Positions 45,420 to 47,387 of a stretch of 64,000 nt of DNA are shown here, piece by piece. The stretch's first letter is position 1. Each line of letters starts with the position of its first letter. A program made the translations under genes and the position numbers. Below the pieces are notes generated by a model. The model worked only from the letters and a program-made list of their open reading frames with translations, did no database searches and was not told where the DNA came from. The stretch is taken from NCBI GenBank assembly GCA_038825875.1, contig JAWBOS010000002.1:12607-76606 (forward strand), written 5' to 3'. This stretch comes from Candidatus Woesearchaeota archaeon (lineage in GTDB: Archaea; Nanobdellota; Nanobdellia; Woesearchaeales; JAWBMQ01).

Positions 45420-47387
45420 TTAACTTACAGAAATACCGATGATTACTGGCGGTCTGTTAACATCTTTAACGATAATTCTAAATTCCTTGACTATTTGTGC
45501 TTCTCCATCTGAAACTATAAATCTCTGAGTGTAATTCCCTGCATCTTCATATGTGATTTCATAGGTGGAATTTGTTAACCAACCTTCAAGTTTCCAAGAA
45601 ATATCATCCAAATCTGGATCAAAAATCTTCGGCTTTACAATAGTAACTCTTTGATTTTTAACTGATGATATATATATTTCAGTCTGAAAATCTGTAGCCT
45701 TGTACTCCTGCAAGATTATGGGTTCAAAGATTAATACCTCTCCTTCATTTACTATTATGTCATCTATGTCTGAAACCAAAGGTATTCTGTTCTTGTTTAA
45801 AACAATAACCTCCACAGTTTTTTTACTATTTGCAATTCCGTCTGTAGCAATAATGAGTATTTCATATGTGCCTGCACTGTCATAATCTGTTTCAAAAGTA
45901 CAGTTATCTAATAGGGTTTCTTGCAGGTAACAAGCATAAGTTACCGTTTCATTATCTAGATCATACACTCGAGGTGTTAATGTAAGATTCTGTGTTTCTT
46001 CAATATAATGCTTATCACTAATCTCAATAATTGGTGGTCTGTTCTTATTTAAAACTGTAAAAGTAAGCGTTTTGTTAGTACATCCTTCATAATCACATGC
46101 AATAATAGTAAAATTATATTCTCCACTTGAAAAATAATCAAAGTACCACTCCGTATTGTTTATATCGCCAAATACATTTACTACTATCTCATCATTTTCT
46201 TCATCTTCTATGAACTCTAAAAAGTTTAAGTAAGTATCTTCAGAAATTATCATGTTTTCTAGTTTGATCTTTGGCAATGTGTTATATCTTAAAACCTCAA
46301 TTTTGCCAAACTCTATGACTTCATCATATCCATCAGAAACTGTAACATTAAAATAATATGTCCCATTAGCAAACTTTGGAACATTCCAGATTCCATTTTC
46401 ATCAAACGGATCAGAAAAAGTAACTGTAATATTATCTCCATCTGGATCTGTGACATTTAATTCAAGTCTTACCACATCCAATCCTCTTACTACTTTAGGA
46501 TAAGATAATTGAACAATTGGCTTTCTATTTACATTTAAAACTTCTATGACAAAATATTTTGTCACATTATAAGTACCATCTGAAACCACTATTTTCATAT
46601 TGTATGTTCCTTGATCATCATATGTTGTCTGATATTCTGGTTTATCTAACCAACCAATGTAATCTATAGTTATTGGATCATCATGAACATCCTTAACCTT
46701 AATATACTTTGAAAGATTAATGAAATCTCCCTCTTTGAAAACTAATCTATCAGGTACCTCAACCTCTGGTGGTAGATCCTTTTTTAAAACTATTAATCTA
46801 ATCTTTTGAGTTACCACATCTTTACCATCACTAACAGAGATATTAATTATGTACTCTCCAAAATCTCCATATGTGGTTTCCCAATAACCATCTTCATCCA
46901 GTGGTTTTGAAAAAGTAATAATCAAGGGATCTCCATCGGGATCTACTGCACTAACATTTAATTTAATTATATCTGTTTCATTAATCACTATGGTTTTAAC
47001 AAATTCTGCTTTTTCTAGTATTTCAGGAATTTTTTCTTCTTCAATAATAATCTCTTTTGTTTTGTTAGTTTCTAATCGAATTTCACCTTCTTCAGATGAA
47101 AGATTTTCTTTTTCAGTAATATTCTCAACACGTCTTAAAATACATATGGAAGTTAGATCTACATCTTTTCCAAATATTTCTTTTACTGTTTCCTCATCTG
47201 GAAAACAAATCTCTGAGAGGTTTAATCTGTTCAAGTCAATAGAAATGTGAGTTATGTTCTTTTCTGAAACGTTTGAGATATTTTTCAATTCTATCTCCTT
47301 AATAAGATTACCTGTTTGGGTAGTACAACCAATAAACATAATAAAAATAAAAACCAACCATCCAAAAAGTATTTGTTTCTTTTTCAT
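45420..47387 (-). CDS. Secreted or lipid-anchored surface protein with at least six cadherin-like repeats.
   Basis: The signal peptide MKKKQILFGWLVFIFIMFIGC has a lipobox-like IGC. A repeated unit of about 95 aa carries DPDGD-type acidic motifs and a V(L/K)N(V/K)NR(K/P)P(I/V)I linker motif, analogous to the cadherin DxNDNxP linker. Confidence 0.6.
   Translation of the reverse strand: MKKKQILFGWLVFIFIMFIGCTTQTGNLIKEIELKNISNVSEKNITHISIDLNRLNLSEICFPDEETVKEIFGKDVDLTSICILRRVENITEKENLSSEEGEIRLETNKTKEIIIEEEKIPEILEKAEFVKTIVINETDIIKLNVSAVDPDGDPLIITFSKPLDEDGYWETTYGDFGEYIINISVSDGKDVVTQKIRLIVLKKDLPPEVEVPDRLVFKEGDFINLSKYIKVKDVHDDPITIDYIGWLDKPEYQTTYDDQGTYNMKIVVSDGTYNVTKYFVIEVLNVNRKPIVQLSYPKVVRGLDVVRLELNVTDPDGDNITVTFSDPFDENGIWNVPKFANGTYYFNVTVSDGYDEVIEFGKIEVLRYNTLPKIKLENMIISEDTYLNFLEFIEDEENDEIVVNVFGDINNTEWYFDYFSSGEYNFTIIACDYEGCTNKTLTFTVLNKNRPPIIEISDKHYIEETQNLTLTPRVYDLDNETVTYACYLQETLLDNCTFETDYDSAGTYEILIIATDGIANSKKTVEVIVLNKNRIPLVSDIDDIIVNEGEVLIFEPIILQEYKATDFQTEIYISSVKNQRVTIVKPKIFDPDLDDISWKLEGWLTNSTYEITYEDAGNYTQRFIVSDGEAQIVKEFRIIVKDVNRPPVIIGISVS

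Follow-up and report, generated by a model that had tools for sequence, protein, structure and literature searches.

What does an archaeal cell do with a lipid-anchored chain of cadherin-like repeats? DPANN archaea depend on contact with other cells and their envelopes are poorly known. The 64-kb stretch analysed here (contig JAWBOS010000002.1; "the window" is this whole stretch) encodes on its minus strand, at 45420-47387, a 655-amino-acid (aa) protein with an N-terminal lipobox and six such repeats, R1 to R6 from the membrane outwards. The first-pass annotation of this DNA proposed a host-attachment adhesin. The reading favoured here, with a probability of roughly 0.55, is a lipid-anchored core envelope glycoprotein, mainly structural, of a family conserved across Woesearchaeota and Nanoarchaeota. 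The structural role is drawn from the cassette of an anchored and an anchorless protein that the family forms elsewhere. The core role is suggested by the occurrence of one cassette per assembly among the loci examined, by its conserved position and anchored/anchorless pairing, and by conservation that is highest in membrane-proximal R1 and lowest in distal R6.

The open reading frame (ORF) is real, running from ATG to TAA, and its product is 100% identical to NCBI protein QW524_00915 from a metagenome-assembled genome (MAG) of a Candidatus Woesearchaeota archaeon, which makes the source of the DNA (G+C about 30%) a DPANN archaeon, in line with the small-genome and possibly episymbiotic archaeon envisaged at first pass. 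On the opposite strand within the gene, two ORFs (45700-45885 and 46990-47250) were considered and discounted as mere shadows of the long one. The N-terminus, MKKKQILFGWLVFIFIMFIGC, comprises three Lys, a 15-residue hydrophobic core and Cys21, and MKKK...MFIGC fits the PROSITE-type lipobox pattern ({DERK}(6)-[LIVMFWSTAG](2)-[LIVMFYSTAGCQ]-[AGS]-C, Cys at positions 15-35), as does no other ORF of at least 80 aa in the window. The lipobox signal claimed at first pass is thus upheld by the pattern and by the Cys itself, which is kept across the lipobox subfamily and present in all lipobox-type homologues. Export would be of the Sec type, since the signal contains no twin-arginine motif. Beyond the signal peptide no hydrophobic segment was found in the whole protein, so there is neither a transmembrane (TM) segment nor a further membrane anchor. 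The mature protein has an isoelectric point (pI) of 4.3 and a mass of 72.9 kDa.

Characterised haloarchaeal lipoproteins are mostly substrates of the twin-arginine pathway, e.g., solute-binding proteins, whereas the window protein is a repeat-array surface protein with a Sec-type signal and Phe at position -3. It shares an N-terminal signal with a lipobox Cys with the AliA/AliB lipoproteins of Haloferax volcanii (PMC12462473). According to the same study, in which archaeal lipoprotein lipidation was recently tied to the enzymes AliA/AliB, the Haloferax lipoprotein anchor is a thioether-linked archaeol; for DPANN, a prevalence of lipoproteins is predicted, and AliA (arCOG02177) occurs in that group (PMC12462473).

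A database search returned 95 homologues, nearly all from Woesearchaeota or Nanoarchaeota, which are named 'PKD domain-containing protein' and carry the same precomputed Pfam domains. Homologues of the first type are lipobox proteins that end a few residues past the last linker, while those of the second start with an ordinary signal peptide, contain 5-8 repeats and differ from the first at the C-terminus. R1 is strongly conserved in both types (ETDLVxLxPxAxDPDGDxLxYTFSxPLDxxGEWQTTYGDAGEY...SDG). When one genome from each GTDB species was scanned for the R1 signature, W[QK]TxYGD[AY]G, at least 235 loci were confirmed, and all cassette, neighbourhood and copy counts refer to the best 80 of these 235. 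For the locus search, a 56-sequence full-length alignment was too divergent, and the R1 alignment was used instead. The 80 loci are titled Woesearchaeota, Nanoarchaeota or Nanoarchaeia, except for some third-party annotation records titled 'uncultured Methanosarcinales', a label that is doubted here.

At 76 of the 80 loci, genes of both types lie side by side on one strand as a cassette, separated by a median of 43 nt. The first of the pair, gene 1, encodes three repeats without exception; gene 2, which comes next, encodes 5-8 repeats in 62 of its 67 complete copies. The lipobox Cys is found in 67 of the 76 gene-1 proteins (plus four with LINGC) and in none of the 76 gene-2 proteins; a TM anchor was detected in neither, and both have a pI of about 4.2-4.5. 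A Hel308-like helicase follows the cassette in 52 of 76 cases. Each assembly represented among the 80 loci has the family once, and its position in the genome is in many cases fixed. At three loci (L017, L054, and L077) a third gene with three repeats was observed. No published description of the R1-signature cassette was found, and the cassette, which is conserved in Woesearchaeota and Nanoarchaeota, may deserve separate follow-up.

As for the place of the window protein in this family, its R1 scores 100-105 bits against the first-repeat hidden Markov models (HMMs) of both cassette genes. Of 75 gene-1 C-termini (L007-L085), 72 stop 12-14 residues past the linker Asn, with I/V invariant at +8, and their consensus (N-[RM]-[PA]-P-[VE]-I-x-[DE]-[IV]-x-[LQ]-x(1-3)-stop) is matched by the end of the window protein, NRPPVIIGISVS (45423-45455, minus strand). 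Judged by these sequences, the window protein is a gene-1-type lipoprotein, because it has both the lipobox and the matching tail, although it stands solo and has six repeats instead of three; the family includes further solo members, with four or six repeats. Neither a paralogue nor a Hel308-like helicase was found in the window. The gene-1-type tail looks like the opening strand of a further domain that is missing, and may serve as an interaction or strand-donation element. The family as a whole is recognisable by the R1 signature, the lipobox, the tail and the two-gene cassette next to a Hel308-like helicase. Being widespread and present once per assembly among the loci examined, it is a good target for proteomics, cryo-electron tomography labelling and multimer modelling.

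Linker landmarks and HMMs delineate exactly six repeats in the protein. The first-pass annotation had counted at least six units of about 95 aa; the repeats are real, but the units measure 80-84 aa (about 82), except for R6, in which a 30-aa insertion raises the length to 112 aa. Pairwise identity among the six is 20-35%. Leave-one-out HMMs, built from five repeats and applied to the sixth, recovered every repeat with E between 1e-16 and 1e-23, and the same check gave no seventh repeat in residues 22-125. Self-BLASTP saw no internal repeats in the protein, to which it is blind because the units are too diverged. The acidic motif reported for each unit is indeed present in all (DPDGD, DVHDD, DPDGD, DEEND, DLDNE, and DPDLDD in R1-R6, respectively). 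The conserved linker holds in part: (L/K)(N/D)(V/K)NRxP follows R2, R4, R5, and R6, but R1 and R3 end in LKKDLPP and LRYNTLP.

Conservation along this array bears directly on the adhesin proposal, according to which the protein is a lipid-anchored rod whose distal repeat or repeats bind a host-cell protein or glycan, as in fibrillar adhesins or cadherins. In its favour, the source organism belongs to DPANN, the domains have a cadherin-like fold, and the membrane-distal R6 is the least conserved repeat (about 54% identity to orthologues over aligned columns) and contains the insertion. The latter is, by sequence comparison, lineage-specific and is modelled as an extra beta-hairpin (strands 570-576 and 579-585; pLDDT, the predicted local distance difference test score, about 77-80). 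Surface proteins with immunoglobulin (Ig)/PKD folds are also discussed as DPANN interaction factors in a preprint (bioRxiv 10.1101/2023.10.27.564410). However, the best-conserved element is not the tip but R1, with 74-78% identity to orthologues, the highest of any part. The 57% identity between the protein and its orthologue in a sister MAG lies inside the 45-88% range of the neighbouring housekeeping genes. Tandem Repeats Finder detected no DNA-level repeats in the gene that could drive a change of repeat number, so the array is old rather than recombining or variable in copy number, and the number of repeats is six in each of the three orthologues.

Adhesins specific to a host tend to vary, to occur in several copies and to be patchily distributed. 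The present family, according to the 80 loci, spans Woesearchaeota of many sources, occurs once per assembly, often at a fixed position, and is usually a cassette, which suits a core envelope component better than an adhesin of this kind. Moreover, fibrillar adhesins have a distinct adhesive domain besides their stalk repeats, whereas Pfam and the structural model give only stalk-type repeats and a disordered stalk here, with no adhesive or lectin-like tip domain; the sole distal peculiarity is the R6 insertion. The adhesin proposal is therefore not specifically supported and appears doubtful, and the gene looks like that of an ordinary, well-defined surface lipoprotein, with no evidence for a special host-attachment device. 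Surface proteins with Ig-, PKD- or cadherin-like repeats, as well as predicted lipoproteins, are already recognised in DPANN genomes. A metagenome scan for relatives, based on the orthologue alignment and its poor patterns, returned one distant two-repeat lipobox protein only.

The cadherin likeness itself was assessed with structural models and profile searches. In the full-length AlphaFold2 model, built with a 56-sequence alignment, all six repeats are all-beta with pLDDT mostly >90 (overall mean 82.7), and a single-domain model of R1 reaches 93.5; the beta-sandwich fold expected of the repeats is thus supported by prediction. The stalk has pLDDT <50 at residues 23-55 and 86-127, and between these stretches a small ordered element (about residues 56-85, pLDDT about 85) holds the Cys61/Cys82 pair. 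Foldseek applied to the full-length model does not discriminate, matching any Ig-like chain (titin, contactins, protocadherins, SbsB, Sap). For the R1 model, the top matches are protocadherin-24 (CDHR2), cadherin-23, and protocadherin-15 (E 3e-4, 21-26% identity, template modelling score about 0.52-0.56), and the predicted domain is a seven-strand Greek-key beta-sandwich superimposable on extracellular cadherin domains. A six-repeat profile also has protocadherin-15 as its best match in PDB (E 4e-5), aligning DPDGD with DxD, SDG with xDx, YxD with DRE and the linker with DxND. The order of motifs corresponds to that of cadherins, including ETD as the counterpart of xEx and a linker ending in Pro. 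Phmmer with the whole protein against PDB gave just a short, insignificant match to a xylanase of glycoside hydrolase family 30.

Regarding Pfam, the protein lies above the cut-offs of Big_9 (36.7 bits vs 23.6), PKD (35.8 vs 23.5 in the PF00801/PF18911 tests) and PKD_4 (34.3 vs 27) and marginally above that of Cadherin_4 (25.4 vs 25.1), thereby resembling the Big_9/Cadherin_4/PKD (E-set) repeat proteins of Woesearchaeota, while Cadherin PF00028 stays below its gathering score (17.9 vs 28.8 bits, E 0.0042). What sets the family apart from these generic families is the R1 signature (GEWQTTYGDAGEY in the window protein), the lipobox and the conserved C-terminal tail. The signature of PKD domains is a WDFGDG-type motif, which the repeat alignment shows in none of the six repeats, the equivalent loop being of the cadherin-like DPDGD type. 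Unlike eukaryotic cadherins, the window protein has repeats of about 82 aa rather than about 110, the linker N-x-N-R-x-P in place of D-x-N-D-N-x-P, and neither a C-terminal TM helix nor a cytoplasmic tail, as it stops 7 residues past the last linker. "Cadherin-like E-set beta-sandwich" is a fair description of the repeats, whereas membership of the classical cadherin family is not indicated.

The linker that the first-pass annotation found reminiscent of cadherin DxNDNxP lacks the two Asp and has Arg at one of these positions, and the Pfam Cadherin score is below its cut-off. Acidic residues stand at the equivalents of xEx, DRE, DxD, and xDx in most repeats, R3 and R4 being partly degenerate; E137, D149, and D187 are invariant throughout the family, with D151 and D175 nearly so. 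Calcium binding by the repeat junctions is plausible from these residues, although it is not established, because the linker Arg sits where cadherins have Asp; alternatively, this Arg may pair with the acidic cluster.

In SraP of Staphylococcus aureus (PDB 4M00/4M02/4M03), acidic residues near the domain junctions are likewise present, and each cadherin-like (CDHL) module binds a single Ca2+ at the junction, which stiffens the stem (PMC4047093). By analogy, something similar is plausible in the window protein, the two sharing tandem beta-sandwiches of similar size and a relatively rigid stem. In other respects they differ: SraP is a serine-rich repeat adhesin that is anchored to a Gram-positive cell wall and has two CDHL modules and an L-lectin tip, while the window protein, with six modules, is anchored through its N-terminal lipobox and lacks a tip domain (identity 15-19%).

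According to sequon counts, the protein is probably sugar-coated through N-glycosylation. It contains 24 N-x-S/T sequons, compared with 5.35 +/- 2.1 in shuffled versions, none of which (0 of 2000) reach 24, and its observed/expected ratio of 4.3 is an outlier in the window, where all other ORFs have at most 2.6. Eleven sequons occupy the same positions in all three orthologues, which also conserve three Cys pairs (Cys61/Cys82, Cys431/Cys436, and Cys486/Cys496). The density of 3.7 sequons per 100 aa exceeds the family medians of 0.2-0.6, and since typical members have far fewer, the heavy load is specific to the window lineage.

A secreted, acidic protein with multiple Ig folds and many N-glycosylation sites matches the description of an archaeal surface-layer (S-layer) glycoprotein. 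On the S-layer explanation, the family builds a paracrystalline layer in Woesearchaeota, with the lipoprotein as a SlaB-like anchor and the secreted partner as a SlaA-like canopy, and in the window lineage one six-domain lipoprotein does both jobs, as csg does in Haloferax. The cassette indeed joins an anchored with an anchorless protein, its distribution is conserved with one copy per assembly among the loci examined, and the gene has a TATA-like motif in common with the adjacent ribosomal-protein gene. In the preprint mentioned above, no S-layer protein is reported as determined for any DPANN archaeon, and the candidates proposed are glycosylated multi-Ig proteins (bioRxiv 10.1101/2023.10.27.564410). 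Haloferax volcanii csg, which the window protein parallels in its predicted architecture, has six Ig-like domains, is acidic and N-glycosylated, binds and depends on cations, and is covalently tethered to lipid via a spacer (PMC8640222). However, csg is anchored at its C-terminus through archaeosortase/PGF-CTERM processing and not by an N-terminal lipobox, its lattice has been demonstrated experimentally, and no sequence similarity between the two was detected. The parallel is notable as an analogy only.

The Sulfolobus pair SlaA/SlaB resembles the family cassette in combining a membrane-anchored stalk protein with an anchorless outer protein, both beta-sandwich-rich and glycosylated (bioRxiv 10.1101/2023.10.27.564410; see also PMC10903991). 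SlaB nevertheless has a C-terminal TM helix and a coiled-coil stalk, no homology links the two systems, and the window gene is solo. Neither phmmer nor repeat-profile searches of PDB gave sequence similarity to known S-layer proteins. In the full-length Foldseek comparison, SbsB, Sap, and EA1 match no better than titin or contactin does, and the inter-domain arrangement in the model is undefined. To our knowledge, no archaeal S-layer anchored by an N-terminal lipobox has been described. A true S-layer is thus an unlikely explanation.

A more ambitious and equally improbable version makes the R1-signature family the main S-layer-type envelope system of Woesearchaeota, in which a lipobox stalk and an anchorless canopy are joined by R1 and the C-terminal beta-strand tail, possibly through strand complementation. 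The window lineage would then have merged stalk and canopy into one heavily glycosylated lipoprotein. If true, it would be a first in two respects, namely the anchoring of an archaeal S-layer through an N-terminal lipobox lipid and the identification of an envelope protein in this uncultured order.

For the core envelope glycoprotein favoured here, the proposed mechanism is as follows. By analogy with Haloferax, an AliA-type enzyme would link Cys21 to archaeol through a thioether, the signal peptide would be removed, and the protein would hang by its N-terminus from the outer membrane face. Its predicted shape is a rod of six beta-sandwich domains of about 82 aa on a flexible, mostly disordered stalk, with no recognisable tip domain. 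The 24 sequons, if N-glycosylated, would give a dense glycan coat, and the acidic junction residues (ETD, YxD, DxDxD, and SDG) may bind cations or pair with the linker Arg and thereby stiffen the rod. The protein would serve as a membrane-anchored glycoprotein coat or spacer that makes protein-protein contacts through the conserved R1, the conserved C-terminal tail or both. The variable distal repeat might have a secondary role in contact with other cells. It would represent the single-chain, six-repeat form of a system that is elsewhere split into a lipoprotein anchor and a secreted partner.

Several observations weigh against this reading. At -3 the lipobox has Phe, where archaeal lipoprotein predictions use the canonical L, V or I (PMC12462473); two close orthologues also have Phe there (FVSC), while one of the three canonical residues is found in most other members of the family. 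Neither AliA nor AglB was located in the 64 kb seen, where no search aimed at AliA was made. Lipidation, signal cleavage and glycosylation are all three predictions. In the linker, both Asp of the cadherin DxNDNxP are lost from N-x-N-R-x-P, Arg replacing one of them, and the predicted template modelling score (pTM) of the full-length model is 0.41, which leaves the arrangement of domains undefined. The gene-2 partner is absent both beside the gene and elsewhere in the window, so that the single-chain form is one we infer, and positional HMMs of the cassette repeats identify R1 clearly, while R2-R6 are not assignable to cassette repeats. Finally, structural and adhesive roles are not mutually exclusive, and nothing separates them decisively.

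The remaining explanation, a glycan- or polymer-binding surface protein in which an enzyme-free lipoprotein array holds polysaccharide at the cell surface for nutrient capture, is very improbable. Similar cadherin-like and PKD-type modules do act as accessory domains of carbohydrate-binding type in secreted glycoside hydrolases, and the window encodes a subtilase and other secreted proteins. Matches to glycoside-hydrolase modules, however, score no better than those to cadherins and adhesins, neither the protein nor its cassette partner contains a catalytic domain or known carbohydrate-binding module, and across the loci the gene has neither a sugar transporter nor a glycoside hydrolase linked to it.

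Table 1. Features of the lipoprotein gene and its surroundings, with two examples of the family cassette. Positions are those of the window unless a locus is named.
Feature	Residues	Position	Strand	Remarks
Complete gene, 655-aa lipobox protein with six cadherin-like repeats	1-655	45420..47387	minus	ATG start; TAA stop at 45420-45422
Signal peptide with lipobox	1-21	47325..47387	minus	KKK, hydrophobic core, F-I-G-C; Cys21 is the predicted lipidation site
Membrane-proximal stalk	22-125	47013..47324	minus	About 105 aa, mostly disordered, Glu/Lys-rich, 7 sequons
R1	126-207	46767..47012	minus	Family signature module (ETD...DPDGD...G(E/Y)W(Q/E)TTYGD(A/F)GEY...SDG)
R2	208-290	46518..46766	minus	Followed by linker LNVNRKP
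R3	291-372	46272..46517	minus	Degenerate linker LRYNTLP; lacks Glu and Asp at two junction motif positions
R4	373-452	46032..46271	minus	Conserved Cys431/Cys436 pair; linker LNKNRPP
R5	453-536	45780..46031	minus	Conserved Cys486/Cys496 pair; linker LNKNRIP
R6	537-648	45444..45779	minus	Membrane-distal, least conserved; linker KDVNRPP
30-aa R6 insertion	about 557-586	45630..45719	minus	Absent from both 632-aa orthologues (alignment gap)
C-terminal tail of ...NRPPVIIGISVS	649-655	45423..45443	minus	Fits the conserved tail of cassette lipoproteins
TATA-like box TTTATAAA		47447..47454	minus	About 60 nt upstream of the ATG; putative, read from sequence
Shine-Dalgarno-like GGTGAT		47391..47396	minus	3 nt before the ATG; putative, read from sequence
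T-rich tract TTTATTTTGCTTTTTATTTTGCTTTTTGTTTT		45377..45409	minus	Just past the stop codon; sequence and 12-nt tandem repeat
MacB/LolCDE-like set: ABC ATPase and two small ORFs			plus	
MacB/LolCDE-like set: CARDB + PLDc_N protein		52704-54044	plus	
MacB/LolCDE-like set: FtsX/MacB_PCD permeases		54022-55215 and 55217-56398	plus	
Cassette example, L004		9998-13023 of L004		From the set L004-L085
Cassette example, L021		4864-8298 of L021		From the set L004-L085

As for transcription, the gene appears to be monocistronic, because it has its own TATA-like box upstream and is followed by T-tracts and a second AAATATTTATAAA motif. The T-rich tract past the stop codon looks like an archaeal oligo-T terminator, a putative function. 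The second AAATATTTATAAA TATA-like motif is located at about 45345-45360 (minus strand), beyond the T-tracts and upstream of the S19e gene.

The window otherwise contains housekeeping genes (S19e, L31e, CDC48, tRNA synthetases, DNA ligase, eRF1). The sister MAG (L001, with orthologue P0003) keeps the gene order around the lipoprotein gene, namely CDP-alcohol phosphatidyltransferase, LAB_N-like protein, lipoprotein gene, S19e, L31e, DnaJ, NUDIX, and HerA. Directly upstream on the same strand (47528-48380, minus), and kept in L001, lie the CDP-alcohol phosphatidyltransferase gene, which has weak archaetidylinositol-phosphate/pgsA-like matches, and that of the 83-aa LAB_N/SemiSWEET-like membrane protein. 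Beyond this lipid-synthesis gene pair and a tRNA gene, and divergent from them, a 629-aa multi-pass membrane protein is encoded at 48617-50506 (plus). No Pfam family exceeds its cut-off for this protein, with weak hints of DUF2142 (E 0.0034) and of TMEM260-like proteins (GT-C-type), and with 86% identity to its sister-MAG orthologue it surpasses S19e and L31e in conservation. Possibly it is a glycosyltransferase of relevance to the neighbouring sequon-rich protein.

A MacB/LolCDE-like gene set (50866-56398, plus) is located about 3.5 kb from the lipoprotein gene. At 61422-63997 (minus), a subtilase (Peptidase_S8, 61422-62645) adjoins a 419-aa ORF (62738-63997) with 8 sequons and no Pfam match, and both may be further secreted or surface proteins. 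Among the RNA genes, an Rfam tRNA match of 116 nt at 22308-22423 (plus), with a possible intron, overlaps the 5' end of the opposite-strand DNA-ligase ORF. Another tRNA at 10638-10723 (plus) overlaps the start of a 316-aa ORF without a Pfam match, and the start of this ORF is therefore probably mis-set. Finally, L31e (44202-44726, minus) is 174 aa long and has a Lys/Glu-rich C-terminal extension, the copy in the sister MAG having 133 aa.

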